64,000 nt of DNA, taken from contig NIVC01000518.1 of NCBI GenBank assembly GCA_002269645.1, forward strand, positions 1-64,000. The letters are read 5' to 3'. Shown here one piece after another: positions 1-40,048 of the stretch (position 1 is the stretch's first letter; the number at the start of each line of letters is the position of its first letter). This DNA is from Macrostomum lignano. Lineage: Eukaryota. Position numbers and translations under genes: made by a program. Under the pieces are notes generated by a model, which was not told the origin of the DNA, did no database searches, and was given only the letters and a program-made list of their open reading frames with translations.

Positions 1-1500
1 GAGAGGAGAGACAGGTGAGTGACTGGGGGTGAGACTACTTTGACATGTGAGAGTCAGGTAGCTGATAGAGTGAGAGTCAGGTAGCTGATAGAGTGAGAGT
101 CAGGTAGCTGATAGAGTGAGAGTCAGGTAGCTGATAGAGTGAGAGTCAGGTAGCTGATAGAGTGAGAGTCAGGTAGCTGATAAAGTGAGAGTCAGGTAGC
201 TGATAGAGTGAGAGTCAGGTAGCTGATAAAGTGAGAGTCAGGTTGCTCATCGAGTGAGAGTCAGGTTGCTCATCGAGTGAGAGTCAGGTTGCTGATAGAG
301 TGAGAGTCAGGTTGCTGATAGAGTGAGAGTCAGGTTGCTGATAGAGTGAGAGTCAGTTGCTGATACAGTGAGAGTCAGGTTGCTGATAGAGTGAGAGTCA
401 GGTAGCTAGTGAATGATATGTGAGCTGAGAGTCAGGTAGCTGATAGAGTGAAAGTCAGGTAGCTAGTGAATGAGATGTGAGGAGAGAGTTAGGTAGCGGA
501 TAGAGTGAGAGTCAGGTAGCTGATAGAGTGAGAGTCAGGTAGCTAGTGAATGAGATATGAAGAGGTGAGAGTCAGGTAGCGGATAGAGTGAGAGTCAGGT
601 AGCTGATAGAGTGAGAGTCAGGTAGTAGAGTGAAAGTCAGGTAGCTGATAGAGTGAGAGTCAAGTAGCTAGTGAATGAGATGTGAGGTGAGAGTCAGGTA
701 GCTAGTGAATGAGATGTGAGGTGAGAGTCAGGTAGCTAGTGAATGAGATGTGAGTGAGAGTCAGGTAGCTGATAGAGTGAGAGTCAGGTAGCTGATAGAG
801 TGAGAGTCAGGTAGTAGAGTGAAAGTCAGGTAGCTGATAGAGTGAGAGTCAAGTAGCTAGTGAATGAGATGTGAGGTGAGAGTCAGGTAGCTAGTGAATG
901 AGATGTGAGGTGAGAGTCAGGTAGCTAGTGAATGAATGTGAGGTGAGAGTCAGGTAGCTAGTGAATGAGATGTGAGGTGAGAGTCAGGTAGCTAGTGAAT
1001 GAGATGTGAGGTGAGAGTCAGGTAGCTAGTGAATGAGATGTGAGGTGAGAGTCAGGTAGCTAGTGAATGAGTGAAGTGAGAGTCAGGTAGCTAGTGAATG
1101 AGTGAGGTGAGAGTCAGGTAGCTAGTGGGTGAGATGTGAGAGTCAGGTTGATCCACCCCATCATCATCAGGCAAGGCCAGTCTGAACGCGGAGTTAAAAG
1201 CCGCATCCTGCAGACGCTGCAGAAGTGCCACCGCTGCGACACTCAACAGTCAGATTGGTTCAAGTCCTCAGCCGACAATCGAGACAGGGTGCTCATAGGG
1301 CGGCGCGATATTGCTCAGAGGTATTTGGATTTTGCCGAAGACTGCCCGCAGAGTCTGCTGTCGGCCAGGCTGATGCTTACCGGCCTGCTGGCTCGCCGGC
1401 TGGAAGATGGGCCGCCCATGCCGCCGCCTCCGCTGAGCTGATGCAGCGTCTGCGAGAGCAACTGGAGTCGATCAATTCGCTGTTGAAGCCGGCGGTTTAA
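1..1500 (+). CDS. 3' end of an unknown gene entering from the left: exon end 1-14, repeat-filled intron 15-1170, terminal exon 1171-1441 (or to 1500 with a 1-nt frameshift)
   Basis: Canonical donor acag|GTGAGT at 15. Pyrimidine-rich acceptor ccaccccatcatcatcAG| at 1169-1170 is phase 2, compatible with the donor if base 1 starts a codon. The exon is GC-rich and open (QGQSERGVKSRILQTLQKCHRC...LSARLMLTGLLARRLEDG). Only 14 nt of the upstream exon are visible and no family was recognised. Confidence 0.5.
47..1146. repeat. Minisatellite with ~23-bp unit GTGAGAGTCAGGTAGCTGATAGA and a longer variant containing GTGAATGAGATGTGAG
   Basis: Tandem copies read directly; two unit types are interleaved; the array lies inside the predicted intron. 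Confidence 0.95.
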
Positions 1501-1517
1501 GACTAAATATTGGCGGA

Positions 1518-2860
1518 GCCATTTCCAATCTATTAGGGTGCCATTTCCAATCTATTAGGGTGCCATTTCCAATCTATTAGGGTGCCATTTCCAATCTATT
1601 AGGGTGCCATTTCAATCTATTAGGGTGCCATTTCCAATCTATTAGGGTGCCATTTCCAATCTATTAGGGTGCCATTTCCAATCTATTAGGGTGCCATTTC
1701 CCTCTATTAGGGTGCCATTTCCAATCTATTAGGGTGCATTTCCAATCTATTTGGGTGCCATTTCCAATCTATTTGGGTGCCATTTCCGATCTATTAGGGT
1801 GCCATTTCCAATCTATTAGGGTGCCATTTCCAATCTATTAGGGTGCCATTTCCAATCTATTAGGGTGCCATTTCCAATCTATTAGGGTGCCATTTCCAAT
1901 CTATTAGGGTGCCATTTCCAATCTATTAGGTGCCATTTCCAATCTATTAGGGTGCCATTTCCAATCTATTAGGGTGCCATTTCCAATCTATTAGGGTGGC
2001 CATTTCCAATCTATTAGGGTGCCATTTCCAATCTATTAGGGTGCCATTTCAATCTATTAGGGTGCCATTTCCAATCTATTAGGGTGCCATTTCCAATCTA
2101 TTAGGTGCCATTTCCAATCTATTTGGGTGCCATTTCCGATCTATTAGGGTGCCATTTCCAATCTATTAGGGTGCCATTTCCAATCTATTAGGGATGCCAT
2201 TTCCAATCTATTAGGGTGCCATTTCCAATCTATTAGGGTGCCATTTCCAATCTATTAGGGTGCCATTTCCAATCTATTAGGGTGCCATTTCCAATCTATT
2301 AGGGTGCCATTTCCAATCTATTAGGGTGCCATTTCCAATCTATTAGGGTGCCATTTCCAATCTATTAGGGTGCCATTTCCAATCTATTAGGGTGCCATTT
2401 CCAATCTATTAGGGTGCCATTTCAATCTATTAGGTGCCATTTCCAATCTATTAGGGTGCCATTTCCAATCTATTAGGGTGCCATTTCCAATCTATTAGGG
2501 TGCCATTTCCAATCTATTAGGGTGCCATTTCCAATCTATTAGGGTGCCATTTCCAATCTATTAGGGTGCCATTTCCAATCTATTAGGGTGCCATTTCCAA
2601 TCTATTAGGGTGCCATTTCCAATCTATTAGGGTGCCATTTCCAATCTATTAGGGTGCCATTTCCAATCTATTAGGGTGCCATTTCCAATCTATTAGGGTG
2701 CCATTTCCAATCTATTAGGGTGCCATTTCCAATCTATTAGGGTGCCATTTCCAATCTATTAGGGTGCCATTTCCAATCTATTAGGGTGCCATTTCCAATC
2801 TATTAGGGTGCCATTTCCAATCTATTAGGGTGCCATTTCCGATCTATTAGGGTGCCATTT
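1518..2860. repeat. 22-bp minisatellite GCCATTTCCAATCTATTAGGGT, about 60 copies
   Basis: Nearly homogeneous tandem copies, each containing one TTAGGG. Confidence 0.97.
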
Positions 2861-3479
2861 TAGAAACCTTATGTGCCATCTGAGGTGATAAAAAAATAAT
2901 AATGCCCTTTTCTAAATCCGTATTAGACGAAATCCCTTAATTGCCTTTTAAATGTGACGTGTCATCTTAAAATAAGAATGGCAATAAATATCTATTCGAA
3001 AAAACAGTGTCCCTCTTTCCAAAATGAGTGATTCTATTTAAATTAGCATTTTTCTCCGATCATGCGCTACTTTGCAATGGCTGCTTAAGTTTGTCTATGT
3101 TTCTACTTTTAGTAGTTTACTATGAGCGCGTAGCTTACACTGTACCTTTGACTTTATTGCCTATTTTAAGACACTGAAACTGCCTTTAAAGTTAAATAGT
3201 TATAAACAAGATTTGGAGTGAAAATATTTTTTACAGAATTACTCAGAATTGTATGTTTCTTTTGTTTTTAATTTTTGCTAAAAATGTTATGATTTAAACC
3301 GGGAATCAGTACTTGTTTAGTCGATTAAATAGTATTTCACCTGTCCCATTGTGTCTGCTATATTTTATTAATAAAATATATATTACTAAGCCCTGAAATA
3401 ATTCACCATTCCTTTAATCTGGTTCACAATTACTTAACACTGCTCATTGATTCGTTAAATCGGTAACTTTCACTGACAT

Positions 3480-3870: not shown

Positions 3871-3909
3871 ATTCATGCCGCTAAGTCCCCATCGTGAACA
3901 ACCGTAGCC

Positions 3910-4976
3910 ATGGGTCGAGTCCGCACCAAAACTGTGAAGAAGGCCGCCCGGGTGATCATCGAGAAGTACTACACCAGGCTGGGCAACGATTTCCACATCA
4001 ACAAGCGCGTCTGCGAAGAGGTCGCCATCATCCCGTCCAAGGCGTTGCGCAACAAAATTGCCGGCTTCCTCACCCACCTGATGAAGCGAATCCAGCGCGG
4101 CCCGGTGCGCGGCATCTCCATCCGTCTGCAGGAGGAGGAGCGCGAACGGCGGGACAACTACGTGCCCGAGGTGTCCGCTCTCGACGCCGAACAGCTGGAA
4201 GTTGATCCTGTCACCAGCCAGATGCTGCGGGCGATGGAGCTGAGCGTTGAGGTGCTCACTTATTTATGGCATTCACGCTGCCTGCATCTCGCTTTCCTGT
4301 GTCTGTTGGTGGCACTCAAGTCTCCCCCTCCCACCGTGTCACTGTCCACGTCTCGGAAATCCGGGGACTACTTCACCTCTTTCTGCTGTTCTCTTTGTGT
4401 CACCTCCCACTTTCCCTCTCTCACTCTCGCTTTCCTCTCCTCACATTCCTCTCCTCTGCCTCTCCTCTCACTCTCACTCTCCTCTCTCTCACTCTCCCTC
4501 TCCCTCTCCTCACCCCCCTCACTCCCTCTCCCTCTCCTCTCACTCTCCTTTCACTCTCCCTCTCACTCCCTCACTTCCTCTCTCTTCCTCTCTTCTCCTC
4601 TCCTCCCTCTCCTCTCACTCCCCTCTTCCTCTCTCTCCCTCTTCTCTCTCACTCTCTCTAGCTCACTCCCTCTCCCCTCCTCTCACTCTCCTCTCACTCT
4701 CCCTCTCCTCTTCTCTTCTCCCTCTCCTCTTTCTCTCCTCTGACTCCCCTCTTCCTCTCCTCTCACTTTCCCTCTCACTCCCTCTCCCTCTCTTATCCTT
4801 CTCTCTCCCTCTATCTTCTCACTCTCCGTCCCCCTCTCACTCTCCCTGTTCTCTCCTTCCCCTCTCCTGTTTTTTTCCCACTCATCCCACTGATCTAGGA
4901 ACGTCACTCCTTTGCTCAATTTGGTAATTCATAGTCTAAAATACATTCAAATTTTCAGGTGACTGAAATCCAATGA
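3910..4976 (+). CDS. RPS17: 40S ribosomal protein S17 (exon 3910-4251 plus predicted terminal micro-exon 4959-4976; 119 aa)
   Basis: [44 protein letters not shown]...[30 protein letters not shown] is the eS17 signature. A phase-0 donor gag|GTGCTC at 4252 and acceptor attttcAG| at 4957-4958 give ...ELSVE-VTEIQ-stop. The second exon is inferred. Confidence 0.95.
4385..4875. repeat. CT-rich low-complexity tract inside the predicted RPS17 intron
   Basis: Almost pure C/T with CTCTCA and CTCC motifs; it explains the S/L/P-rich read-through of the ORF track. Confidence 0.9.
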
Positions 4977-5544: not shown

Positions 5545-6540
5545 GCCAACTAGTATATCTATAAGTGTCCCTGGGGTAGCTACGTGTACCAAGGACGACT
5601 GGATAAAGTGTCCCTAGGGTAGCTACGTGTACTAAGGAAAACTAGATAAATACTTCCCGGGGGTAGCTATATGAACCAAGGTCAACTAGATAAAGTGTCC
5701 CTGGGGTAGCTACGTGTACCAAGGACAACTGGATAAAGTGTCCCTGGGGTAGCTACGTGTACCAAGGACAACTGGATAAAATGTCCCTAGTGTAGCTACG
5801 TGTACCAAGGACAACTGGATAAAATGTCCCTAGTGTAGCTACGTGTACCAAGGACAACTGGATAAAATGTCCCTAGTGTAGCTACGTGTACCAAGGTCAA
5901 CTAGATAAAGTGTCCCTGGGGTAGCTATATGTACCAAGGTCAACTAGATAAAGTGTCCCTGGGGTAGCTATATGAACCAAGGTCAACTAGATAAAGTGTC
6001 CCGGGGGTAGCTATATGAACCAAGGTCAACTAGATAAAGTGTCCCGGGGGTAGCTACGTGTACCAAGATCAACTAGATAAAGTGTCCCTGGGGTAGCTAC
6101 GTGTACCCAAGGTCAACTGGATAAAGTGTCCCTGGGGTAGCTACATGTACAGAACAACTAGATAAAGTGTCCCTGGGGTAGCTACATGTACCAAGGTCAA
6201 CTGGATAAAGGGTCCGTGGGGTAGCTACATGTACCAAGGTCAACTGGATAAAGTGTCCCGGGGGTAGCTATATGAACCAAGGACAACTAGATAAAGTGTC
6301 CCTAGGGTAGCTACATGTACCAAGGTCAACTATATAGTGTCCCTAGGGTAGCTTCGTGTACCAAGGTCAACTGGATAGTGTCCCTAGGGTAGCTACGTGT
6401 ACCAAGATCAACTAGATAAAGTGTCCCTGGGGTAGCTACGTGTACCCAAGGTCAACTGGATAAAGTGTCCCTGGGGTAGCTACATGTACCAAGGACAACT
6501 AGATAAATACTTCCCGGGGGTAGCTACATGTACATGTACC
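5545..6540. repeat. 43-bp minisatellite (AAAGTGTCCCTGGGGTAGCTACGTGTACCAAGGACAACTGGAT), about 23 copies
   Basis: Period 43 measured between 5701 and 5744; variant units are present. Confidence 0.95.
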
Positions 6541-6589
6541 AAGGAAATGTACACTGCGTGTCCATGTATTGCAGCCTAATTTTTACTAG

Positions 6590-7360
6590 TGTTGTGTAAT
6601 GCAAAATCTCCGGGGGGCGGCTCGTGATCCTCGAGCAGCTACGGCCTCCTAAGACTAAATACCAGGGTACAAGTACCCCTTCAGGGTGGCGAGCCAGTGA
6701 TGGCGTCCGACACTCTGACCGAGCTGCCGGTGTCGGGCGGTGCGTACCATCGCCTCTCGTTCCTAGCCAGCAGCTCGTCCCTACGGCAGTACCCGATACA
6801 GTATGTCTCGTACTGAACAATGAACAACACAACGAGACTCAAGTTCTTACTGAGGAATGAACACGGCGGCGAATTAGGACTAGCCGGTAGCGCGGATTCT
6901 CAGACGTTGCGTACCCGTAGGGGCGTCTCGGTTCTAATCGATATGGGCAGTGGAATCTCAGAGCTGAGTTGGGTTGGAAGGTAGCAGCCAAAGTTGGTCC
7001 CTCACTGCCGCTACACCGCGCTAAATATATATTTGGGTTGGCCGGCTAGGCCGCGGGGAATCGCCCCCCGCGCCCACCCGACCAGCCACACAACCAGCTT
7101 AGCACATTACAGCGAGAAAGCTGCTGATTGGCCGGCGCGTGAGAGAGGCGGCCCGTACCAATCAGCAGCTGCGCAAGAGACGGAAAACTTGGGGGGGGAC
7201 GCGCTGAGAGGGGTGGCGCAGCCAGCCAAAGCCGGCTGGCTCAGACAGACTGGGGTGGGTGGTGCATAAACAACTGAGGAGGGAAAGTGCAGTGTCCCAG
7301 TGCGCCAATTAACTGCAAGCCTGAGATCGCTAGGCAGTGAAATTACACTACGGCACAACA
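6590..7360 (-). repeat. 3' LTR of the Gypsy element
   Basis: Begins TGTTGTG and ends CACAACA (7-bp inverted termini). By eye it differs from 14271-15047 by about 13 substitutions and about 4 small indels. Confidence 0.95.
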
Positions 7361-7373
7361 CCCTCCCCCTCCC
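7361..7373 (-). promoter_or_regulatory. Polypurine tract (GGGAGGGGGAGGG on the minus strand)
   Basis: Directly abuts the 3' LTR. Confidence 0.9.
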
Positions 7374-7508: not shown

Positions 7509-9158
7509 TTAAATATTATAAAATTCACGCGCAGCCGCAGCCAGTCGACCAGGTAGAGCCCCGTCGCTTCGCTCCTCAGTAAGCCAGGTCGCCGCCTTCC
7601 GGACATCAGTCGGCTTGCCCGGGTTTCCCGCGAATGGTGCTGATGATGCGACTAGCAGCCGGTCGGACGGTATCGCTGCGACGCATCGGGCATGCCATCG
7701 GCTGTTGGAGACCCGGGCGGTGACTTCAAATATCAGTCTTGGCAACGACGCTAGGTACAGGCTGAGGGTGTCTTTGGGCCAGTCGGAAGATTCGACAACT
7801 AGAATGCGACAGTTTGCAAAGTCCGACGACACTAGCAACCGTAAGAACTGGTGCCAGGCCGAGCCACCGGGTTCGACTGGGCTACGTCTACGCTCTCGCA
7901 AACGAACCAGGAGGGGTAGATCTCGTTTATTTGCTAGCCCAACCTGTAGCTCCAGGGCTGCCATTTGTTGCTCCACACTGATTGCAGTATTCTGGACGTC
8001 CAACTCGGCTTCACCGACAGCCACTACCCTTGTCCATTCGCCCGCTATGAAACGCTGCAGGTCGGCAGCCAGCGTGGTCATGAGCGGTGCCGCTGACGCC
8101 CTCAATCCGAGCGCAAAGTGGATCCGAGAGTCACATGAGCCGGGCAGTTGCGGGGTTTGACGGTCTCAAATAGAACGGTGAATTCACTACCGACACACAG
8201 GCTTCTACGCGACTACGCCGTCCAGGACAACTGGGGCAACTAGGGCATCTAGGTCTTCTTGAGGGCATTCTGGGTCGAGGAAATCCGCTTCATCGACGGC
8301 CTTCTCTGCCTGGTCTTTGGACTTCGAGTCCGGGGCCACTAGTACCGTTAGCTCTCGGAGTTTTGACAGGAGTGCCCCGCCGTTCAGCAGGCTCATTTTC
8401 TTGATGCATGTCATTACAAATCCGATTGATGCAGTCAGCGCTTCGTTCGACAGCACTCGAAGGCCCCGCCTAGATGACCCTGGGCGGCGCTTTCGAGGTG
8501 ACACATCAGACGCTATGAAACTCAGCGCAACCCCTAGAGAATCGGAGACCCATCGCCGAGATTCCAGGCCTGCCAAAAGGAACAGTTCTTCCAGTCCTGA
8601 TATGCATTCCTGCGCCTGAGCGATCCGACCGATCCGCAGATGCTGGGCCAGGTGATTCCGGAGGCTTCTGTATCTGACCTCAATCGACTCAGGGACTCTT
8701 GGTGGGCCTGATCGCGCGACCATTAAGACTCCACCCGCCGGCGCAATTGGGGTCGCATCAACGGCGGGAGGTTCGTCTTCATCGTCACTGATGACCACGA
8801 TCCCCATGCTCTCGAGTCCGGCTCTTATTTCGTCCGGAAAACTGACTCCGGGTGGCGGGCTGAAGAACTGCGCGTACGATAGCGTGTTGCTCAGGGCTGC
8901 TTAACCGAATTTGTCGTATAGCGCTCTATAAAACGGGTCGCTCAGGACTGAATACGCGAATACCACCCGTTGGTAGGCCCCTGTGCTTCCGACGCCCACC
9001 TTGTCGGGGCGAAGTAGTAGTGAGCGCCGACGGAAGGCCACCTTTATGTCTCTCGGTGAAGCTGATTGAGCTACGCCGAGCAGGTCGTGCAGATCCGACA
9101 CTGCAAGGCCAGCGTTCAACTTGCAGGCACCCCAAAAAATGGAACTTGCTAAACGCAT
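7509..9158 (-). pseudogene. Accessory ORF of the Gypsy element (~549 aa reconstructed): J-domain, SIM-like, NLS-like and TatD/TATDN2-like domains; one nonsense codon and two compensating 1-nt indels
   Basis: Track ORFs 8901-9158, 8205-8807 and 7509-8105 are all in the same frame. TAA at 8901-8903 is followed by 31 open codons into MGIVVISDDEDE. J-domain: DLHDLLGVAQSASPRDIKVAFRRRSLLLRPDK...AYSVLSDPFYRALYDKFG. TatD motifs: RVVAVGEAELD, LQVGLANKRDLPLLVRLRE, AIPSDRLLVASSAP. Confidence 0.8.
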
Positions 9159-9451
9159 GAAAATACAATTACAACTGGATGAAAATACGAACCCGTACTG
9201 TACTCAGCAACTTGGAGGCGCGATGAGAAGGGTGAGAAAATGCACATCCCAGAGCGATTGATGGACAGATTGGCTCAGATTAATAGAGGATTGGGTCTCC
9301 GAATCGACGTGGCGGAATTCCTCGATTCGCACGAACAGGGCGACAATTGAAATCCTGCTCGGGAGGAGCGGCTACACGAGGCTGATGGTGTGTGATGCGC
9401 TGTGCCCAAATGGGCTCTGGGTCCAATTCAGCGTCACTGTTCTGCTCAGAT

Positions 9452-12400
9452 TCAAAAAACTGGCATTGGGGGATTAGGAGCTTCCGGGCGGGAATATCGC
9501 TCACGTGACCTGGTTCCCGCCGTTGCCTGAGTCCTCCTTTGAGCAGGAACGTGGGACCTAGAGCTGGCATCGATTTTCCTTAGGTTGTTGAAATGGACTA
9601 CCCTAGGCCTTCGCGCACCATCGTGCAGGATTCTGTAATTGACATCGGAAAACTTTTTTAGGACTTTGGCCGGGCCTTTCCAATAGCGGTGGAACTTCGG
9701 GATTTCATTCGGTTTAATCACGGGATCGTATTCTAGAACAAGATCACCTTCATTGATCTGAGCGCCACGAGCTTGGCTGTCATAAAGCTTCTTTTGCTTC
9801 CTCTGATAGGTTCTGAGATTCTCCCTCACAGCCTCGTGTGCTTGCTGAAGGTCTTCAGTCAGTCGACGAGTGAACTTGGAGAAACTCTCTGGCACCCTCT
9901 CAGTCGGATTCTCAATGTCGATCGGGAGCTGCATTTCCCTACCAAACAGAATGTAGTGCTAGCCTGTGCCTCTATGCACGCTAGAACGATAGGCTAGCAA
10001 ACCGGGCGCAATGCAGTCTTCCCAATCCTTGTCCTCCTGCTCTAACTGACACGTTAACATGTGCTTTAGAGTCCTATTAAAGCTTTCTGCTTGCCCATCC
10101 GCCATCGGATGATACGGAGTGGTTCGACACTTGCGGATGTCTAGCAGAGAACAAAGGTTCTTCATCAATGCTGACTCAAAATTTGATCCCTGATCAGTGA
10201 CTATCTCCTGTGGACAACCGAATGATGAAATCCAGTGCGTGAAGATTGCACGGGCTACTGTTTTGGCACGCTGATTTGCTAACGGGATTGCACACGGCCA
10301 TTTACTGAATGCGTCTTGGATTGTCAAAACAAATCTCGACCCATGCTTGGACTTCGGCAAAGGACCAATGATGTCGCACATGATTCTTTGAAACGGAAAT
10401 GAGCTCGGGATGGGTTGCAGTGGTGCCCTGCCTCTTGGCGATGGTTTGCACTTTGAGCACACTAGACATGTTCGGCAGCACTCCTCAACTCTACGAGACA
10501 GACCAGGCCACAAAAAGCGTTGCTTAAACTTTCCTTGAGTCTTCTTAACTCCGAGGTGGCATCCACTGACGCCATCATGAAGGATTTTGGCGGCTTCTTC
10601 TAACAGGGAATTTGGTAGGAGGATTCTCTTCTGTGAGTTCTCTGGCACTGTCAGGAGCAGTAGCCCATCTTCTAAGACTATTCGAGTCCTATGGGCCCAG
10701 ATCTCTCTCTCTCAACTAAACTACTGATCGGTTCATTTTGCAGCGCTTCACCTTCAAGTAACTGCCTTACTCGTTTCAGAGCTGGGTCAATTCTCTGAGC
10801 CTCTCTGATGCACTTGACGCTGAGAGGTGATGCTAACACAGCGTTCACTTGTTCAGGTGTTTGTGGCGAACTGTTACAGGAAGGGCACGACTCTTGGGCC
10901 CAATGCTTTCGAACTTTACGAGACACTGTCCGCATTCTGGTGAAAAATCCCTTTCCTGTGAACTATTTCAAACTCAAAACGCTGTAGCGTCTCTAGCCAT
11001 CGAGCGCACTGTCCTTCCACATCTTTGAGGTTCGTTAACCATGACAACGCACTGTGATCTGTTCGGATTTTAAATTTGCGCCCCAAGAGGTAATATTTGT
11101 AGGCCTTGACGAAGTGCACGATCGCAAGAAGTTCTAGTCTAGTCGTACAGTAGTTCTTTTCACACTCTGTCAGGGTCCTTGACCCATAGACAATCTCACT
11201 TTTTCGGAGCCGTCGGCTTGCACCTGAGACAGGACAGCTCCAATTCCTATTTTGGAACTCGCGTCGGTGTCAAGCACATACTGTCCAGCTGTTTCGGAAA
11301 AATCTGGGTAAGCCATCACTCCAGTCGAAATCAGAAGTCTCTTTAATTCACAGAATGCTCCTTGCTGCTCCCGGCCCCACTCGAACTTGGTGTTCTGGCG
11401 CAGGAGTTTGTACAGCGGAGCTGCTATGATCGAGAAATCACGGATGAAATTTCTGTAATAAGAACAGAGACCAAGGAATGATTGTAGCTCTTTGACACAA
11501 CTCGGAATAGGCCAATCGCTAATCTCTTTCGTTTTCGCTGGATCTGTAGCTATTCCTTCCGCTGAAACTACGTGGTCTAAAAACTTTGCCTCTTTGGACA
11601 GAAAATGGCACTTCTTTGCTTTCAGACGGATTCCTGCAGCTCGCAATCGGTCGAACCGGTCGAACACGTGCTGCAGTCTCTTAAAATGCTCTTCATAGGA
11701 CTTCGCAAAAACTATAATGTCATCAAAGTACACAAGGCACTCCTTCCATGACAGGCCAGTCATAACTAGGTTCATGAGCTTTACAAATGTGGCTGGGGCA
11801 TTTTTCAGCCCAAAACTAACATAGCGCCACGCGAACTGACCGCGGTTTGGGATGACAAACGCTGTCTTCAACTGGTCTCTACGGTCCAGGGGGCACTGAT
11901 GGTAGCCTGACGCTAGGTCCAGAGTGGAGAATACAGCGTTTCCTGATAGAGCTTCAAGCGTCTCGTCCATCCTAAGTGGAGGGAAAGGATCAGGAACGGT
12001 GACGTCATTTAGCCTACGATAGTCCAAGCATAAGCGGATAGAGCCGTCTTTCTTCCGAACAGGTACAACCGGGCTGACCCAAGGAGACTGGCATTCATAG
12101 ATCCTGTCGCATTCGAGCAGTCTATCAATCTCCTTGTCGATCTCCGGGCGCAGATGAAGTGGGATGCGCCGCGGGGCTCGCGGGTCGGCTTCGCTGAGCC
12201 GGTGTCAATGGTGTGCATTGCTAAATCAGTGGCGCCTAACTCACTGTCATCTTTTGCAAAAACGTCTCGATTTCGGCGAATCAATTCAGTGAATGAACCT
12301 TGCTGCTCTGGTGTCAAATCTGTTGACTCCCAGCTGCCGAGATTACTGACTGGGTCCCAACTGGTGTCAAGGGTAACCAAGTTAGCCTGTGCTGCAGGTT

Positions 12401-13259
12401 TCACTTCCTGAGCAGGAGGTTGGCTATCGTTTACAGGGGTGAACCAACCAACTTGCCTTCCTCTGGGCAGGGTCACTGGTTCGCCTAAGATGTTGGTTAC
12501 TTTAATCGGCAAAAATCCTTCAGCTGATGGGATGCCAATGGCTCTGGCCAATAACACTAATCCTTCATTCTGATAACGAGTCTCTGTTATTCCTGTGAAC
12601 TGGAAATTCCGGACACCTTTTCGACTTAATTTGGCCTGAATGATTTGGGATCTATTGTTGGGGACCGTTACCGATTTCGGGATGACAATCCGGCAGAGAA
12701 TAGGTCGCTCAGTTGTCATCCGAAATTGGAAGGTACCGTTCGATGTGGTGACTTGAAAGTTTGCAAAATCTAGCGTAGCTGCTTGACGACGAAATAAATC
12801 TGCTCCGAGGATGCATGGATTCAAGAGACTGGAGACGATTGTAAATTTGTGACTGAATTTTAGAGAGCCAATAAAAAATTCCACAACGCACTCGCCCAGC
12901 ACATCAATCGCATCACCATTAGCAACTTAAATGTTTGGTCCGATGGAACTCGGCACTAGCATGGATCTAGGCAGATTATTTTTCCAAACTCTCTCACTCA
13001 ACAGGGGTGTACTGGCACCCGTGTCGAGCAAACACGTGATCTTGGCTTTCTCGGAAAAGCGGATGTCAACAAAACCGAGTTCTGTACTGGATTCATGGGC
13101 GGGCTGGCTCGGTGCGCTGGGTTGGGCCTCTACTAGTGACTGGCTTGGGACCCTGGATGGCCCTGCCTCCAGGTCCCTCTCTCGTTTCCCATCTGTTGAT
13201 CCCTCGCTAGCTGCTGACACCTGGCTTTGACGTGGTTCGGCCTTCTGCAGTAGCTGCAC
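9452..13259 (-). pseudogene. Gypsy pol (protease, dUTPase-like spacer, RT, RNase H, integrase), broken by several frameshifts and stops
   Basis: Protease CLLDTGAST (12927-13259); RT FSTLDLASGYHQ...CLVYFDDIIVF (11170-12027); RNase H VLDTDAS and IRTDHSALSWL (10916-11119); integrase LHDGVSGCHLG...CRTCLVC, CDIIGP, VTDQGSNFES, GQAESFNRTL (9959-10648). Confidence 0.95.
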
Positions 13260-14100
13260 ACTATTGGGTTCCTACACTGACGGGTCACGTGATTGGTCCC
13301 AAAGCGTCGACCACACTGAACAGCTCTATGAGTCGGTGCTGCGGCCTGGGTAGGTTGGGGATTTGGGTGCTCACGATGGCTGACTCCTGCACCCGGCCTA
13401 GCCTTCAAGGCCTGCAGCTCCAATCTCAGCTCTTTCAGTTCTTCGCGGAGTCTGACTGTCTCATCTTGCGTAGTGGACGAGTTCACTGAGGGCCATGGCT
13501 TCTCGGTGCTTGCCTGAGCTGTGCGGAGGGATGCCACACTCTGTCTTACCCGCCTACAAGTTGCGTCGAGGGTCTCTGGCTCCTGCAGTAGCAAGTGCTC
13601 ACGAACTCTATCGGCAATTCTAGCACCTAGCAGGAACCGGTCCCTGGCCAACTCATCTCTCTGATCTGCCGGCAGGTTCGGATAGGCCCGACGGACAATT
13701 TCGCGAAGGGCGTCGGCATAGCTTTCCACTGACTCATCCTTCTTTTGGTCCCGACTCCTCAATTCGATCTTACTGTCTTGCGGGGTGTGATGCTGGTTGA
13801 ATCGTTGTGAAAGGCGTTCAACAAAATCTTCAAACTCTAGATCGTCCGACAGTTCAAGATTGGCAATAGCTCGATAAGCTGTATTGAAGTCCATCAGGCT
13901 AATTAGGTGCTGCTTCCTGTCTTCTTCAGGGATCTCTGCAATCAATCTCTGATCTCACAATACGCTGTAAACTGCTGCATCCACAGTGCAAAATCCTGAC
14001 TCAGCACAAACTTGGATGGTCGGGGCACTCTTTGCCCTACGTTCAAATTATTCTGCACTCTAGCTGTAAGCGCATTGATGAGGTCGTCAACGTTGGCCAT
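13133..14100 (-). pseudogene. Gypsy gag with a frameshift near 13945
   Basis: ATG at 14100 gives MANVDDLINALTARVQNN...DFALWMQQFTAYCE. It continues in the 13133-13945 frame with RDQKKDESVESYADALREIVRRAYP and zinc knuckles CGRRFGTNHVTRQC and CSYCRRPNHVKARC. Confidence 0.9.
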
Positions 14101-14250: not shown

Positions 14251-14269
14251 AATCCTGGTCACGGCACAA
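14251..14269 (-). promoter_or_regulatory. Primer-binding site resembling the tRNA-His 3' complement
   Basis: Minus strand TTGTGCCGTGACCAGGATT follows the 5' LTR. It resembles TGGTGCCGTGACTCGGATT, the tRNA-His complement recalled from memory. Confidence 0.7.
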
Positions 14270-14270
14270 G

Positions 14271-15047
14271 TGTTATGTAATGCGAAATCTCCGGGGGGCG
14301 GCTCGTGATCCTCGAGCAGCTACGGCCTCCTAAGACTAATACCAGAGTACAAGTACCCCTTCAGGGTGGCGAGCCAGTGATGGCGTCCGACACTCTGACC
14401 GAGCTGCCGGTGTCGGGCGGTGCGTACTATCGCTTCTCGTTCCTAGCCAGCAGCTCGTCCCTACGGCAGTACCCGATACAGTATGTCCCGTACCGAACAA
14501 TGAACAACACAACGAGACTCAAGTTCTTACTGAGGAATGAACACGGCGGGAGCGGCGGCGAAGGACTAGCCGGTAGCGCGGATTCTCAGACGTTGCGTAC
14601 CCGTAGGGGCGTCTCGGTTCTAATCGATATGGGCAGTGGAATCTCAGAGCTGAGTTGGGTTGGAAGGTAGCAGCCACAGTTGGTCCCTCACCGCCGCTAC
14701 ACCGCGCTAAATATATATTTGGGTTGGCCGGCTAGGCCGCGGGGAATCGCCCCCCGCGCCCACCCGACCAGCCACACAACCAGCTTAGCACATTACAGCG
14801 AGAAAGCTGCTGATTGGCCGGCGCGTGAGAGAGGCGGCCCGTACCAAACAGCAGCTGCGCAAGAGACGGAAAACTTGGGGGGGGGACGCGCTGAGAGGGG
14901 TGGCGCAGCCAGCCAAAGCCGGCTGGCTCAGACAGACTGGGGTGGGTGGTGCATAAACAACTCAGGAGGGAAAGTGCAGTGTCCCAGTGCGCCAATTAAC
15001 TGCAAGCCTGAGATCGTTAGGCAGTGAAAGTACACTACGGCACAACA
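14271..15047 (-). repeat. 5' LTR of the Gypsy element
   Basis: TGTTATG...CACAACA, a direct repeat of 6590-7360. Confidence 0.95.
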
Positions 15048-16096
15048 CGAGCTAGTCCATATTTTATCGGTCTCTATAATTGTCTATAATCGGTCCCTAT
15101 AGACCGATTAAATCTGGACTATTAAAGAAGCTGCGATTACGCCATGCAGTAATGATAAAGTAAACGAGAGTGGCTAAATACGAGTAAAAGAAACCCACGA
15201 GCTAACAAATGGATGAAAGAAACTGCTGTACAACTCAAATGGAAAATTTGTGCAAAAGCAAGGTCGGTTAAAATTGGTCCTTAAAATTGGGAAAAGAGAA
15301 AAACTAAACTGTAGAAAATTATGTTTGCTTCTCAGTTAATAGCTACCATTGTTGTTTGCATAGCATAACACATGAACTATTCAATACTATTAGTTATTAC
15401 AGCAGGTAACCAATGCAAAGTAAGAAATAATAAAACTATTTCAGAACACTTTGAGATTTGAATTTCTTCAAGTGAGAATAATAGAAAAAACCATACTAGA
15501 TGGCTTATGCAAAGATTTTATAAAATTTTATAATGACAACAGTTGTGATATTACCTACTGTCTTCTAACAATATACGTGAAAAATTGATAGAAAATTGAA
15601 TAGTTATCAAAGAGCATAAACAAGGATATCCAGCAAGAGATCTATAAACATTTCTAACAAGCATATACATTTTTGATAAAAAAAGTTTGAAAAATCTGAA
15701 ACTTATAGATTTGGATGCAGTGACATAATAAAGTCATGACTCATGATCTCTTATAAGTTATGCATCTTAATTGTTTCTTGTAAGTATAGATCTAACTTCA
15801 ATGGGGCAAACTTTAATTCAATTATTTGTTCATTTATTTGATTTTAATTTTAGTTTCCTACTTTATTTGTAACTTATCAAATAAAAAAATTATTTAATTT
15901 ATGCCACTATGCCACCATCGCAAAAAATCTTTGAATAGCTTCTTAATCTCAATATTACTTCGGATTACTGGTAGAGTTATCAGAGAAACAGATCCAATTT
16001 TACATAGCTGTCTTTCTTCGTGTAGTTTACTATTTTATAAATGGTATGTTTTTAATGCAATGGGATAAACAATGACTTGATAAATCCACTGGGTCT

Positions 16097-17266
16097 CTAT
16101 GCGTGAGCAAACTGCGACCTGATTACCAGCTTCATGGCTGGGTCAATGTAGATCTCCTGTAGCCGCCTTGCCAGCGTGTTGTGCTCGCAGCTTCGTTCCT
16201 CAGGCACCGGGTAGTGTCTCAGCCGGCTCGTCGCAATACTCCTAGCCCTATAGATGGCGAAAGCCGAGAAGCAAGACTCAACCTTGACAGGTATGCTGTT
16301 TTGGACTGTAGCAATTTTATCAGTTATAATGCTGCGATCATATTCCGTGACGCTGGTGTACCGTTTCTTGCTGAAGTAGGAGCGGGCGCACGGGTCATAC
16401 AGGTCGTTGTTGAGGCGGGTATTAGCGCACAGGATGTCCAGTTTCGGCTTGGCGCTAAAGTAATACATTCCCTGGGCGATATTATCTAAACTCCAGGGTT
16501 TCCATTCAATATCCGGGTCGGTGACAATGACTAGATCCGCGGTTTCCTTTAAGTTGTCGTATATATAGTCCAAGTACATGTTTCTTAGAACGCTCATTAC
16601 AACACCGCGATCTATACGATCCTGCTCTGTGCGTTTCTGGCCCCATCCGGGTCTGTGAAGCTTACCAGACCGATATTTAATATTCATTTTGCAAGGCGCT
16701 CTTGAATTAATGGGCTGACACCCAAGAATCACTGTTTGGTTGTTTTTTTGAAGAACTTCATGGAGCAACTCGCGCGTGCCATCGGTTGAATCGTTTTCGA
16801 CAAAAATCAGCCAGTAGTCGTTGAATAGCTTTCCCAATCTGTGCATGCTGTCGATGTTTTTCCGCAAGCGTACTCTGGCATTCTGCACTGTTGCCACAAA
16901 AACCACGTTCTTACGTAGCATCCACTGTCTACCGATCTGCGCCCGGTAGCTAAAGTTACGTTCTTGATCCTCTAGGCGCATAAGAGGCATTCGTGTCCGT
17001 CTTTGAATGAAAAACATTGAGCTGTCTTGCAGCCGCAGGAGTTCGGCATATTGTTTATTAAACTCCGATGAATTCGATTCAATGCGTGCATTCAGTTGCG
17101 CTGGCTCTTGTAATTCCTCCAGGCGGTCGCTGATAGATTCATAATCCCCAGAGCAGTCTGATGGAAAAGTTTTTATCAAAAGTATTATGCAAGAAGAGAC
17201 GACGATGCAGCACATGAATAGCGTTTTTCGCCGCAAGCAGAATAGGCTTTGCTTTCTGAAAAACAT
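16097..17266 (-). CDS. Intronless type II membrane GT-A glycosyltransferase (GT2-like / CAP59-like), ~389 aa from the ATG at 17266
   Basis: N-terminal basic tail and TM helix (KTLFMCCIVVSSCIILLIKTF). Motifs LIFVENDSTDGTRELL, VMSVLRNMYLD, VIVTDPDI (DxD), PVKVESCFSAFAIY and SCEH. Open for 1.17 kb. Confidence 0.8.
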   Translation of the reverse strand: MFFRKQSLFCLRRKTLFMCCIVVSSCIILLIKTFPSDCSGDYESISDRLEELQEPAQLNARIESNSSEFNKQYAELLRLQDSSMFFIQRRTRMPLMRLEDQERNFSYRAQIGRQWMLRKNVVFVATVQNARVRLRKNIDSMHRLGKLFNDYWLIFVENDSTDGTRELLHEVLQKNNQTVILGCQPINSRAPCKMNIKYRSGKLHRPGWGQKRTEQDRIDRGVVMSVLRNMYLDYIYDNLKETADLVIVTDPDIEWKPWSLDNIAQGMYYFSAKPKLDILCANTRLNNDLYDPCARSYFSKKRYTSVTEYDRSIITDKIATVQNSIPVKVESCFSAFAIYRARSIATSRLRHYPVPEERSCEHNTLARRLQEIYIDPAMKLVIRSQFAHA

Positions 17267-18455
17267 TTTCGAAGAAGTTCTGCAGTAGATAATTGGTACT
17301 TTTGCTAAAAATGAATAGTTATAAACTCTATTCTTATAGCTACTCGTAGTTTCGTACACGATAAAAAAACAAGAAATTAAAAGTCGCACCTAATTGCATA
17401 TTTATGCAAGAAGGTTTCTTAAAAACACTTAAACGTCGTTAATAGATATAATTCTTGTTTGTATAATAAACTGATTGTATATTTACTTAAAGTCTACATA
17501 AAAAAGCAATTTATTTTTGTTAAACTTACTACTTTTCGGATTTACTGCAAGATGTTGCCTAATTTACATGCGCATTTATTATAATTTTTTTAAACTTGTC
17601 TTAGTATTATTCAGTAAGTAATTGTAATATTTGAAACAGAAACGTTTGTGGTACTTAATGCGCTATTCTTTACGAATTTGCTAATTAAATTTGTTAATTC
17701 CTACATACAGGTTATATTATATATAATTAAATAAGTTTTAAGTTCTATAACTTTTGTAGCGTTGTACGGTATATAGATAATAATATGAATGGAAATTTTG
17801 TATTTTTTCATTTATATTTTAATGATTTTAGGCGTTTAAATTGTCCTTAATTAGGAATCTGTACTGCATTGCATTGGTGGTCACTAATTTTTTTACATTT
17901 ATATATTAAAATGTGCATATAAGCTTGGTATAGTAATTTAATTTAGTGATTTAGTAAAATGTAGTAATGTAGTAAGTAACGCAGTAAAATGCAATAATTG
18001 TATACAGTACGGTAAAATATTTTTCAAAATTCAAATGTACATAATTCATGAGACTCGCGATCAGTACCAAATAGTATACTGCACACTTCATAAATCATAA
18101 ATGTAATTAGACAAAGACACGCCTACCCGATAGAAAAACGTTGAAAACTTTCGAAGTCAGCACTGGTACTTTGTACTTGGATTGACTTTTAAAGTACTCA
18201 ATGCTTGGCGTTGCTGGTACTTGGAGAGTTTATTATGTTTTTAGCTACTTTCTATGGCTTTCAAAGTATTCAATGTTTTTTTACCGGGTAATCTGTAAAA
18301 GTTTTTCGTCTACCGGTACATTTGCAATTTTATCTTTAAGTTCGCTCATAGAGCATGGTGTGAGCCTTTTGGGCTCTCGGGCCCTAAAAATAGTGCCCGG
18401 AAAATAGCGTGCTTTATCTCATATAGAGCATATATATAATAGCATATATATGATT

Positions 18456-18952: not shown

Positions 18953-21900
18953 TGTAGTGACTGTGCATCAGGCCTAGGTGTTGTAACTAACTAACTTTGA
19001 GGCTAGAATTGTTCAATTACCTTATATGCATCGTGCGTTCAATCATGGTATCGTTGTTTCGATTGCGTAACACTGTTTTCAACGTGCACATGAGTATAAA
19101 TATATTGAGCGAGACTCAAGTGTCTCCAACTGAATTGAATTTAATCAATCAACTAGAACACAACAAATGGCGACGAGCGGACTCCCGTACCCAGCGGAGT
19201 TTCAACCAGTACCAGGCGAACCTCCTGTGCCATGGGCAAGGTGGATCAAGTCATTTGAGAACTTCCTGGTAGCTGGAGCTCTCGAAGAGGCATCAGAGAG
19301 TCGGAAAAAGGCGATCCTCCTGCATCTGCTTGGTGAGGAAGGACGCCGCCGAGCTGCAAACGTCGATGCAAGCAAGTCGCTTCAGGAGACCAAAACGGCA
19401 CTGAAGGCGATTTTCAGCTCGTCGAGAAGCGTCATAGCAGAGCGCTTCGCCTTTCGGCAGCGAGCCCAGCACGACGGCGAGAGCATCGGAGACTACGTGA
19501 TGGCCCTGAGAGAACTGGCAACAAACTGCAAATTTGGCACCTTTCACGACGAAATAATTCGAGACCAACTTGTGGAGAAAACCTGCGTACCTCGCATTAG
19601 GGAAAGACTCCTGATGGAGGAGGACGATCTGACGCTAGATGACGCCATCAAGAAGGCTGAGCGAATCGAAGCAGCCATCAGAGATGCCAAGCAGGTCAGC
19701 GGCCCAGAGCTCCACGTGAAGGCGCTGAGCAAGAAGCCGAAGCCAGCTGCTCGCCATGAGAAGACCGCAGCAGCAGGTCCAAAGTGCACTCGATGCGGAG
19801 GCAACCACGGACACAAGGGCGAATGCAAGGCGATGGGCCAGAAATGCAGACGATGCGGCAAGACGAACCATTTCGCGAAAATGTGCCGCATGAAAGCGGT
19901 CTCTGCGATCGACACCAAAGAGCCTGCAGAGTCCAGTCTGACGGTCCTGGCCGTGAACAACAAGAGCACAGACAGCTTATTCTGCGAATGCCGTCTGGGC
20001 GGACAGCTGATTCGACTGCAAATCGACTGCGGTGCTGCCGTTTCGTTGCTCAACATGGAGACGTTCAAGAAGTCCTTCGCTAGGCACCCGCTGCTTCCGA
20101 CGAGCACAAAACTGGAGGCATACGGCGGATCTGCGATCAAGACCATCGGCAAGGTCGAGCTTCCAGTGACGTTCAACGGCATCAGGACAGAAGCCACATT
20201 CTACGTCGCCGACAAAGGAGCGAACATCCTGGGCCGCGACCTGTTTCAGGCCCTCGGATTCAAAATCTTCCAAGGTGACAACAGAGTGATGAGCATCAGC
20301 GAGACTACGATCGAGCGCGACTTCCCCGGAATCTTCGACGGTCTGGGCCGGTCCAAGAGCTTCATTCACCGGACAAAGATCGACGCCTCGGTCAAGCCAG
20401 TGTCTCAGCCAATGCGGAAGCTGCCGATCGGCCTGAAGGACGAAGTGACGTCAGAGATCAGCCGGATGGAGCAACAGGGCATCATTGAGAAGGTCGACGC
20501 GTCCGAGTGGGTTAGCAACGTTGTCGTGACGCGCAAGAAGGAGTCCAACAAGGTTCGTCTCTGCGTGGATCTGCGGCAGGTCAACAAGGCGGTGATCGCG
20601 GACCGCTATCCGGTACCGTCAATCGAGGACCTATCGGCCAGCATCAACGGCTCGAAGTGCTTCAGCAAGCTGGACCTGCGTCAAGGCTACCAGCAGATTC
20701 CGCTGCATCCAGACTCTCGAGGACTGACGTGCTTCATCACCGATGCCGGCCTGTACCAGTTCACCGTGGTGCCATTCGGGCTATCTAGCTCCGGAGCTGC
20801 CTTCCAGCGAGCCCTGCAGACGGTGCTTCGAGGAGCTCCTGGCGCCATCAACATCGTGGACGACATCCTGGTGCACGGCAAGGACGAGACTGAGCACGAC
20901 AAGAACCTCCGAGAAGTCCTAGGGCGGATTCATCGCGAAGGCTTCACACTCAATCGAGAGAAGTGCAAATTCCGGCAGGCGAGCGTGGATTTCTTCGGAT
21001 TGGTCATCTCTGCAGACGGCATCAAACCGACCAAGTGCAACGTCGACGCAATTCTAAGAATTCCTGAGCCATCAACGGTCGCGCAAATTCAATCGTTTCT
21101 CGGAGCAGTGAACTTTTTGCACAAGTTCATACCGCATTACTCAGCAATTGCCGAGCCTCTGAGACAACTGCTCAAAAAGGACGCGGACTGGCACTGGGGT
21201 GAGCGGGAACGTACAGCCTTCCGTACACTCAAGTCAGCCGTAACCAGCAGCCCAGTGTTAGCTCATTTTGACTGCCAAGCTGAGACGTACGTCACCTGCG
21301 ATGCAAGTCTAGACGGACTGGGGGCAGTGCTCAGCCAAGTACAAAACGAAAAAGAGGTGCCAATCGCGTTCGCATCGAGAGCACTCAGCCCAGCGGAAAA
21401 GCGATACTCAGCCGGAGAGCGAGAAGCCCTGGCCTGTGTATGGAGCATCGAACGCTGGCACTACTATCTATACGGCAGACGAGTAACGCTGCGCACCGAC
21501 CACAAGGCCCTGACAACTCTGCTCGACTCGAAAGGCATGGGGCACAGGCCTCTTCGCATTCATCGATGGGTCGAGAGACTTCGCGGCTACGACGTCCGGT
21601 TTGAGCACATCCCTGGCGCTGACAACAAGTGCGCGGACATGCTGTCCAGATGGGCCACGACGGAGCGCGTTCCAGCCGAGGAGACCGACGAGGAGGGCTA
21701 CGTCTACGCAGTCGTCGACTCGAAGACAACGCTGACGGCAGACGCACTGGCAACGGCGACCAAGGAGGACGAAGTGCTGCAGGCGGTTTTGCAGTACATC
21801 TCGGGCGGCTGGCCATCGAAGGTGGACAGCTCTCTAAAGCCGTACTTCAACGTCCGGGACGAGCTGTTCTGCTGGAACAACGGTCAGTGCCTCGGTCGTG

Positions 21901-24740: not shown

Positions 24741-25149
24741 TCTTTGAGAGGCGGATGCTGATGTGTATTTAATGATTTGAGTACAAGAAGAATCTAACCA
24801 ACCTCGAAGATGAGGCTGATGAATATTCTACTTGACAAATTGACCTATCAGAGCCTAAAGCTACCGCGGCTGCTTCCTGTATGTAACCAAGCGATTAATG
24901 CCCTGTTTCTGATGCATCAGAGACTGCATCGTGCCGCCATCATCAAATCCAATTTATTCATCGATTAGAGTGGTCTCGTAGTTAAACTACCGGATGCAGA
25001 TTGGGAGTCTGGGGACCAACGTGATTGATGATCTTCACTTCGAGTTTGGTCTGAGAAGAGCCGTTCTACCGTTGGGTCCCTGATTGGGCGAGTCTCCTTG
25101 AAGTAAGACGCAGAGTTTATGGTGACACATCTAAGAAAAGTAGTGATTT

Positions 25150-26085
25150 AGAGGGGGACAGAGATTGAGAGGGAGATTGAGATTGAGATTGAAGTTGCGA
25201 GGAAGACAGACGAGAAGTAGACAGAAATTTAGATTGAGAGGGAGACAGATTGAGAGGGAGACTGAGATTGAGAGGGAGACAGAGATTGAGAGGGAGACAG
25301 AGACTGAGATTGAAAGGGAGACTGAGATTGAGAGGGAGACAGAGACTGAGATTGAGAGGGAGACAGAGACTGGGAATGAGGGGAGACTGAGATTGAGAGG
25401 GAGACTGAGATTGAGAGGGAGACAGAGACTGGGAATGAGGGGAGACTGAGATTGAGAGGGAGACTGAGATTGAGAGGGAGACAGATTGAGAGGGAGACAG
25501 ACTGAGATTGAGAGGAAGACAGATTGAGAGGGAGACAGACTGAGATTGAGAGGAAGACAGATTGAGAGGGAGACAGACTGAGATTGAGAGGAAGACAGAT
25601 TGAGAGGGAGACAGACTGAGATTGAGAGGGAGACTGAGATTGAGAGGAAGACAGATTGAGATTGAGAGGAAGACAGATTGAGAGGAAGACAGATTGAGAG
25701 GAAGACAGATTGAGAGGGAGACAGATTGAGAGGGAGACAGATTGAGAGGAAGACAGATTGAGAGGGAGACAGACTGAGATTGAGAGGGAGACTGAGATTG
25801 AGAGGGAGACAGACTGAGATTGAGAGGGAGACTGAGATTGAGAGGGAGACAGACTGAGATTGAGAGGGAGACTGAGATTGAGAGGGAGACAGACTGAGAT
25901 TGAGAGGGAGACTGAGATTGAGAGGGAGACAGACTGAGATTGAGAGGGAGACTGAGATTGAGAGGAAGACAGACTGAGATTGAGAGGGAGACTGAGATTG
26001 AGAGGAAGACAGATTGAGAGGGAGACAGACTGAGATTGAGAGGGAGACAGAGATTCAGAGGGAGACAGAGACTGGGAGAGGGACA
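25150..26085. repeat. Compound purine-rich minisatellite (GAGATT / GAGAGG / GAGACA / GACT modules)
   Basis: Direct reading. Confidence 0.95.
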
Positions 26086-26685
26086 GAAGATATACTCGTA
26101 GGCTGAGAAAGACCAAGTCAGCATCTCAGCAGAGAAGATGCGCACTGAAGGGTGGAGACGCAGCTCAGAAGTGCAAATCAAACAAAGAGCTGAAAGCAAA
26201 ATCTCCATCACAAAAAGCAAGACAAGCATGGGGAATGGACTTAGGAAACCAGTATTTTATAGCCCTTCGGAATACAATGTACAATTCTAAGGCGCTTTTT
26301 TACTGCCTTCGCCTGAATGAAGCTTAATTAAAGATCACGTGATACTGCTAGCTCGCGAGGTGAGGAGTCCAATCGAGAGGGCACTGGGTGGAATTATATC
26401 TCTCTGACCACTCAAAGGGAATCAAGGATAGCAGCAAGCCTAACGCTCACGCAGCTGCCTCTGACACTTCCACTAAGCCGCGTAGATCTTATCTTTCCTG
26501 TTCTTGACAATTCTCCCAGGGGGTTGAAATGGAATTCTCTATTTTTAGTTCTGCTTCCCCGCGATGTTGGTCCCAAGATTCTGTTGCTTCTTATTTGCCT
26601 GGCCTTTCTTCTTTCGGCAATTCACTGGTGTACTTTTACAGAATAGATATTGTTTGCTAACAGGAACTGTACAGAACGACAGATT

Positions 26686-27072
<387 letters not shown>

Positions 27073-39511: not shown

Positions 39512-40048
39512 GCTAGGACTACTAGTGTGAGTTATTACTGTGTTCTCTAGCGGGTCCGCTGGTCTTATCATCTAGCTCTTTTGCGTTAACGAGTATAAAA
39601 GATAGCCAGCTATTATACTTGGATACTTCGCTGGCTATAAGATGGGGCTTCCGTTAAAGTTGAATGACCTTCTAGAGTAGTCCTTAGACAGGACTCAGAC
39701 TAGACGCCGCCAGTTATTTGAGCGCAGCATACGATCGCGCATGACAGCTCACAGGAAGAGTAAAAAACTCTTGGGAGGCATAAATAAACCCCTCAACGCA
39801 TTGAGATTGGGCGGATTGTAAAGTGCAAGGACTGCAAGTCGCCTTGTTGTGGCGTAAAATACAGTCCCCGCTCTTCAACTCTTCTTGCTGAAAAGCAAAA
39901 TTGCGATGCTTCATCGCTGGAAAATCCAATAGAGATTTCTGCAGCAGCAGAACTGAGTCTATAGATTAATTAAGAAAAAAGCTAGAGAACCCAGCGCATG
40001 ATTGCACGCCAGATGAGTGAGGAGAGGGAAAGGTATAGAGGAGAATAA

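Follow-up and report, generated by a model that had tools for sequence, protein, structure and literature searches.

One lineage of Ty3/Gypsy retrotransposons in the flatworm Macrostomum lignano almost certainly carries a conserved third gene, ORF3, between pol and the 3′ long terminal repeat (LTR). Its core consists of a J-domain, a SIM-like motif and a basic helical domain, to which a TatD-like barrel is joined in one branch. The copy followed up here is a dead mosaic in a stretch of 64,000 nucleotides (assembly GCA_002269645.1, contig NIVC01000518.1, positions 1 to 64,000; hereafter the window).

The window carries a full-length but dead, mosaic Ty3/Gypsy copy on the minus strand (Table 1). 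Its LTR pair (13 mismatches in 767 aligned bases), primer-binding site, polypurine tract and target-site duplication, together with the order gag-PR-RT-RH-IN, are those of a Ty3/Gypsy element. The primer-binding-site pattern was found at 13 places, five of them adjoining integrase matches, and none could be identified as a tRNA gene. UniRef attributes near-identical proteins to M. lignano. Compared with the copy on contig C222 (locus L030), identity is 91–99% at 9250–11000 and 69–81% from reverse transcriptase to gag, and the two LTRs can be aligned over 144 nt only; by this comparison two families are joined in the element, which changes from one to the other near 11000 and near 13500. Its flank is common to four contigs, which indicates one insertion in a redundant assembly, and match counts therefore overstate the number of insertions. 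The four Gypsy clades of M. lignano are listed in the published survey (PMC12801592). Elsewhere in the window, another Gypsy element has its gag and pol joined in a single unbroken frame, and no J-, helical- or TatD-like sequence was found near it.

Table 1 Features of the window, with the evidence or remarks for each.
Feature	Position	Strand	Evidence or remark
Target-site duplication, 4 bp, one mismatch	6586-6589 + 15048-15051		Flanks both LTRs
3′ LTR	6590..7360	-	TG...CA ends
Polypurine tract	7361..7373	-	
ORF3 stop codon	7509-7511	-	
ORF3 TatD-like TIM barrel, most metal ligands gone, first strand deleted	7509..8135	-	Pfam, PDB profile, folds of family-B relative
Damaged ORF3 stretch (deletion and frameshift)	8135..8245	-	Pairwise comparison with sister copies
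ORF3 basic five-helix domain, no known family	8330..8690	-	Common to TatD-less families
Lys/Arg-rich loop within helical domain	8466-8495	-	
ORF3 SIM-like motif	8772..8801	-	Hydrophobic core, then acidic run
Premature stop of the window copy	8901..8903	-	Sister copies read through
ORF3 J-domain	8913..9095	-	Pfam DnaJ; HPD position 9003-9011 altered
Predicted splice acceptor (TTGCAG), 5 nt upstream of J-domain	9101..9106	-	Inferred from sequence
Integrase (H2C2, rve, p58_C), one stop inside	9452..10711	-	Pfam
Protease, reverse transcriptase, RNase H, several broken frames	10916..13271	-	Pfam
gag (Retrotrans_gag/PNMA-like, zinc knuckle), broken	13133..14100	-	Pfam
Primer-binding site	14253..14270	-	Presumably tRNA-His-like
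5′ LTR	14271..15047	-	TATA-like box ~330 nt in
Predicted splice donor in 5′ LTR	14524..14531	-	Inferred; exon end A, intron start GTAAGA at 14530
Ribosomal protein S17	3898-4743	+	
430-aa frame	16097-17389	-	GT2 matches and a CAP59 mannosyltransferase match slightly below the cut-off (E 3e-6); unusual in an animal
Second Gypsy element	19134-23069	+	gag + pol, 1311-aa frame
Cytochrome P450	46666-48237	+	Uninterrupted 523-aa frame
1238-aa frame	48811-52527	+	No clear Pfam family
Tandem arrays	5560-6540, 25100-27100, 38270-39000, 39960-45900, 59300-61250		One is a 6-kb near-pure purine tract

The earlier note had joined three ORFs into one interrupted ORF; as stop-to-stop pieces on the minus strand they lie at 8901–9203, 8205–8900 and 7509–8165. 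This outline was confirmed, as the pieces share one reading frame and lie between integrase and polypurine tract, within both LTRs and on the gag-pol strand. Piece 1 matched the DnaJ profile (Pfam E 8e-12, 45.5 bits, cut-off 27.8) and piece 3 matched TatD_DNase (Pfam E 7e-8, 32.7 bits, cut-off 27), so the two predicted domains are both recovered above the Pfam cut-offs; piece 2 gave no Pfam match. The premature stop, which had been suspected to be damage, belongs to the window copy; in sister copies the frame continues past it and takes in all three parts. The remaining damage had been described as two compensating 1-nt indels; pairwise comparison with sister copies revealed instead a small frameshift near 8135 and a ~90-nt deletion near 8220–8245, to which the TatD barrel has lost its first strand. 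The protein of the family thus exceeds the ~549 aa reconstructed. A start at the ATG at 9158 is doubtful, as this codon is absent from a 70%-identical family in which colinearity begins at ~9110. The J-domain stands by its profile, but its HPD motif is gone from the window copy; the SIM-like motif is present as proposed. That the protein is not an envelope was also borne out. The maximum 19-residue Kyte–Doolittle mean is 1.37 for the window's pieces and 1.49 for a natural 571-aa protein, with no hydrophobic stretch of membrane-anchor strength and no envelope glycoprotein by Pfam or fold comparison.

The natural protein comes from family B, a set of 19 loci (38–45% identity) that is distant from the window's family. 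A DNA search gave 29 matches and a search with the TatD part 41, and the family-B loci are among these. An unbroken frame, which the earlier note had suggested looking for, was found in nine of these 19 loci at 571 aa and in one at 575 aa. Among ten fetched loci, gag-pol lies upstream in all ten and the LTR pairs are 99.3–99.9% alike in seven. The dN/dS ratio, which the earlier note had proposed to test, lies below 1, at ~0.08–0.18 between families for all three ORF3 parts. For C471 versus C441 it is 0.12 in the J-domain, 0.075 in the middle and 0.135 in the TatD part, with 0.064 in the integrase C-terminus; all bootstrap intervals lie below 0.3, and the ratios are rough because dS between families (1.5–3) is near saturation. 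Recent copies give 0.27–0.43 and C471 versus a deleted copy 0.81, higher values that are expected after loss of function. ORF3 is thus supported as an accessory ORF of chimeric, non-envelope kind that occupies the env slot under purifying selection, and no one-off insertion. As far as the searches reached, none of the three outcomes that the earlier note had named as refuting it turned up.

Copies that have shed the gene also exist. A young subfamily (L030–L033, on C222, C2475, C150 and C109), with different flanks and LTR pairs 99.3–99.9% alike, has lost the acceptor, J-domain, SIM-like motif, helical domain and half of the barrel; one young ORF3-deleted copy has an unbroken 1307-aa pol. A second, older set of ORF3-deleted copies is also present. 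Six further contigs (C10, C23, C952, C1405, C4067 and C272) have integrases of 54–62% identity, the same primer-binding site in five, and no J-like match among those listed; they possibly represent ORF3-less or ORF3-divergent families. In two UniRef gene models (P0003 and P0004), both chimeric predictions, family-B ORF3 has been taken up as exons; one of the two is titled 'J domain-containing protein'.

The earlier note had treated J-domain plus TatD as the unit, whereas the J-SIM-helical core occurs in many more families and TatD was found in one branch only. When the best 150 integrase matches were paired with 147 of the best 150 J-like matches (three second fragments were left out; the matches are not independent insertions), a J-like match lay 726–1266 nt behind at least 79 of the 150 integrases. 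From at least 44% integrase identity upward, the successive bands had such a neighbor in 6 of 11, 14 of 24 and 59 of 82 cases; below 44%, none of 33 did among the matches listed. The TatD-less families F and H have frames of 322 and 332 aa, whose proteins contain the J-domain, HPD, an FxPP motif, the SIM-like acidic stretch and the basic helical domain, and three more frames, of 327, 333 and 292 aa, point to additional families. The core alone is ~290–330 aa long, and with TatD ~570–580 aa.

The three parts of the core differ in how well they are kept. The DnaJ profile scores 45.5 bits in the window, 48.9 in C471, 47.9 in family F and 65.2 in family H; in family B it falls to 18.3, below the cut-off. 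HPD, the J-domain motif tied to Hsp70 recruitment, is present in the sister copies C471, C513, C441 and C525 and in families F and H, and is missing from the window's insertion and from family B. The closest solved J-domains are those of DNAJB2 and HCG3 (E ~5e-12), by which the ORF3 J-domain appears class-B-like, resembling cellular class-B J-domains. The SIM-like motif, a short and common kind of motif, is kept in five of six families, with family B again lacking it. The helical domain of the TatD-less families corresponds to the middle of the window protein, with five of six pairs scoring above all 1000 shuffles. It has 94 matches in the genome, a net charge of +6 to +17 in four families and a basic loop in all four; it had no match in Pfam or among the sequences of solved structures, and the rows of whole-protein fold searches were mostly taken by the barrel. 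The simplest order of events would be core first, with TatD added later in one branch, and by sequence family B later lost HPD and SIM.

The TatD assignment was examined by structure prediction. AlphaFold2 modeled the barrel of the natural 571-aa family-B protein mostly with pLDDT above 90, and TatD-family chains filled the top 16 Foldseek rows and, for the other model, the top 9 VIA rows, in line with the fold that the earlier note had proposed. The barrel has the fold and profile of TatD but not the metal set HxH (or GxN), Glu, His, His, ExD. Against 90 cellular TatDs, the central Glu is the sole metal ligand kept in every copy; C471 and C441 also retain the first His of HxH. Substitutions affect the ExD pair and four His, namely the second of HxH and three others. 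Of the lost His, three have mostly become Arg or Lys, and a new invariant Glu stands in place of one His. The barrel is likely, not certainly, inactive as a nuclease. The reservation follows from TATDN1, in which the central Glu is the most important residue, single His losses have little effect and ExD loss, damaging in TATDN2 and TATDN3, is not damaging, according to the mutational results available from two reports (PMC10085689, PMC10711561).

In a quick tree, the barrel falls beside TATDN2-like proteins (SH-aLRT 84) on a long branch, and the TATDN2-like profile was best against all 15 control profiles in only two of five sequences; descent of the barrel from a TATDN2-type protein is no more than a lead. 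The host genome has its own TatD-type genes apart from the elements, which we take to be TATDN1-like and TATDN3-like, and no host TATDN2 gene was found with a spider TATDN2 query. Around 80 metagenome TatD loci, no LTR-type reverse transcriptase or integrase was found, a result that is uninformative on whether the barrel came from another mobile element. Four TATDN2-like proteins (P0040, P0046, P0120 and P0154) have an extra Cys/His-rich N-terminal module.

ORF3 is probably read from an env-style spliced RNA that joins a donor in the 5′ LTR to an acceptor before the J-domain. TTGCAG ends 3–31 nt before the J-domain in all eight loci compared, from five families, and occurs in 1–5% of random 40-nt windows. 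An in-frame ATG follows the acceptor in families B, F and H. None does so in the window's family or the 70%-identical one; their predicted exon starts with TG, and a donor with exon-final A is present in three of their LTR types, so that splicing would create the start codon. The motif of the donor is short, a looser form occurring somewhere in 12–14% of LTRs after shuffling, and no donor was found behind C441. Contigs of four presumed RNA runs cover family-B ORF3, one of 7,566 nt spanning the 5′ to the 3′ LTR; among those listed, neither an LTR-to-acceptor joint nor a leader-like loose end at the acceptor was seen, in contigs that drop rare forms. Flatworm spliced leaders can carry an AUG; in families A, B, C and F, this AUG would not be in frame with ORF3, and spliced-leader trans-splicing is therefore not favored.

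The absence of a membrane anchor, the basic loop, the SIM-like motif and the class-B-like J-domain together suggest a nuclear Hsp70 adaptor. SUMO takes part in transposon silencing. We rank first, at somewhat short of an even chance, the reading that ORF3 is such an adaptor acting on SUMO-marked complexes and relieving the element from silencing; its anti-silencing part is put more cautiously still. The protein would be soluble and nuclear, and its basic domain and SIM would dock it on SUMO-marked chromatin or RNA–protein complexes at the element. The J-domain would bring host Hsp70, which may take the docked complexes apart and thereby free element transcription from silencing. The pseudo-TatD would serve as an added binding module without enzymatic activity, a step weakened by the report that the isolated TATDN2 barrel does not bind R-loops (PMC10085689, PMC10711561). 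Because young copies without ORF3 exist, the protein would act in trans or be accessory. Those copies and family B stand against the anti-silencing reading; family B is young and unbroken without HPD and SIM, so Hsp70 and SUMO binding is not an essential function in every family.

The best-surviving alternative, which we consider rather unlikely, is a Rev/CERV-like regulator, in which a product of spliced RNA would bind unspliced genomic RNA through the basic domain, perhaps with the pseudo-TatD, and with Hsp70 license its nuclear export or protect it. Cer1 of Caenorhabditis elegans provides a precedent in a nuclear protein from spliced mRNA that is required for genomic RNA export (PMC10309623). 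The positive charge of the helical domain in four families would suit RNA binding, and TatD proteins are reported to act on RNA and single-stranded DNA ends (PMC10085689, PMC10711561). However, this reading leaves the SIM unexplained, and young copies without the acceptor and most of ORF3 fit it only if help with export is unneeded or given in trans.

A private co-chaperone is improbable. It would supply Hsp70 for Gag/Pol folding, for particle assembly or uncoating, or for bringing the integration complex to the nucleus or SUMO-rich sites. The resemblance to DNAJB2 and HCG3 and the HPD in most families speak for it, but ORF3 has no client-binding domain of the DNAJB kind, its SIM and basic loop suggest a nuclear site, and family B has lost HPD. 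Heat-shock links are published for other M. lignano LTR families (PMC12801592); however, no canonical three-unit heat-shock element was found in the 16 LTR regions scanned, including the window's 5′ LTR, and a heat-shock link of these elements was dropped.

Very improbable is an active TatD nuclease with a rebuilt site that would trim RNA:DNA hybrids or cDNA ends in the manner of the DEDDy exonuclease ORF3 of rotifers (PMC5408684). The invariant central Glu, the new invariant Glu in place of one His, the strong purifying selection and the place beside TATDN2-like proteins in the tree would fit such an enzyme, but against it weigh the loss of ExD and of four His, three mostly to Arg or Lys, and the lack of any TatD match in most J-bearing families. 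A neutral passenger or one-off capture of a host mRNA, to which the broken window copy and the gene's absence from several young copies might point, is largely refuted by the dN/dS of 0.08–0.18, the unbroken frames in many families and the fixed place behind integrase.

On C1874 (L047), a P-loop frame (2033–3097, minus strand), which we take to resemble a small-virus helicase, and a PWWP frame (235–1281, minus strand) lie behind an ORF3 remnant; these ATPase- and PWWP-like frames look like unrelated DNA. The same contig has an aerolysin/ETX-MTX2-like host frame at 8417–9610 (plus strand).

Full-text literature searches, whose scope excluded Repbase, Dfam, GyDB, subscription journals, bioRxiv supplements and the earlier M. 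lignano classification paper, turned up no description of an LTR element with a J-domain or TatD, or of this architecture. In the M. lignano LTR paper, a term search of the main text gave neither 'DnaJ' nor 'TatD', and its five supplements contain no 'TatD', while 'DnaJ' appears there solely where six differentially expressed transcripts are annotated (PMC12801592). By word-index search, no relatives elsewhere were found for the 571-aa protein or the family-F core, and the barrel as query gave one generic TatD. A profile search of 1.84 billion proteins returned two M. lignano gene models, the 166-aa fragment P0005 and then ordinary TatDs; P0005, the sole match beyond M. lignano gene models before the ordinary TatDs, groups with family B. 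No ORF3 relatives were found in metagenome and viral contigs, and ESM Atlas matches, all at most 0.80, are leads only. Captured non-envelope ORF3s in animal Gypsy elements are known; new, as far as no report was found, is a J-domain/TatD gene in the env slot.

Counter-defense or regulatory proteins are known from few animal transposons. A conserved J-domain gene in many active Gypsy families, combined with RNAi and transgenesis in this flatworm, allows a direct test of a possible Hsp70/SUMO hijack. The natural series of core, core plus pseudo-TatD, loss of HPD and SIM, and deletion of ORF3 shows an env-slot gene being built and shed, and both the helical domain and the pseudo-nuclease of ORF3 are new.

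Polyomavirus T-antigen combines a J-domain with an LxCxE motif and a helicase and aims Hsp70 at a host nuclear complex. ORF3 likewise places a genetic parasite's J-domain beside a short linear docking motif; unlike in T-antigen, which belongs to a DNA virus and has LxCxE and a helicase, the flatworm J-domain resembles cellular class-B J-domains, and no T-antigen match was among 50 rows of a viral fold search. By analogy, an LTR element might counter silencing in T-antigen fashion, a SUMO-aimed co-chaperone stripping silencing complexes, a disarmed TATDN2-type barrel shielding or reading RNA:DNA hybrids and ORF3-deleted copies being served in trans; we regard this fuller scheme as unlikely. VANC of Arabidopsis VANDAL and the AlkB ORF of an orchid Gypsy element are also transposon accessory proteins tied to escaping host control, with domains and hosts unrelated to those of ORF3 (PMC5735166, PMC9289625). 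With TatD/TATDN nucleases, ORF3 shares the TIM-barrel fold, the GE motif and, in family A, an HxH-type remnant; it differs from those described in being short of most metal ligands, intronless and element-borne (PMC10085689, PMC10711561).

The closest parallels are by position and by kind of cargo. Insect errantivirus env shares the post-pol position and predicted subgenomic splicing with ORF3, and in fly springer the env start codon is built at the splice junction, as predicted here; ORF3 differs in fold and lacks a signal peptide, a furin site and a membrane anchor (PMC12992720). CERV of C. elegans Cer1 is a nuclear product of spliced mRNA that is needed for the export of genomic RNA and has a probably non-enzymatic G-protein-like domain. 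Like ORF3, it is a non-envelope accessory protein encoded by an animal Gypsy element and includes an enzyme-like domain that is probably inactive, but splicing, nuclear site and function are demonstrated for CERV, the first two being predictions for ORF3, and no J-domain or TatD is reported for CERV in the available text (PMC10309623). Bdelloid rotifer LTR retrotransposons carry non-envelope ORF3s encoding a DEDDy exonuclease or a GDSL esterase, and thus also include a nuclease, of 3′ exonuclease fold. As in the flatworm, a captured cellular domain occupies the ORF3 slot of an invertebrate Ty3/Gypsy element as family-specific, modular cargo; unlike flatworm ORF3, the rotifer enzymes, as far as described, are single-domain and keep their catalytic residues (PMC5408684).
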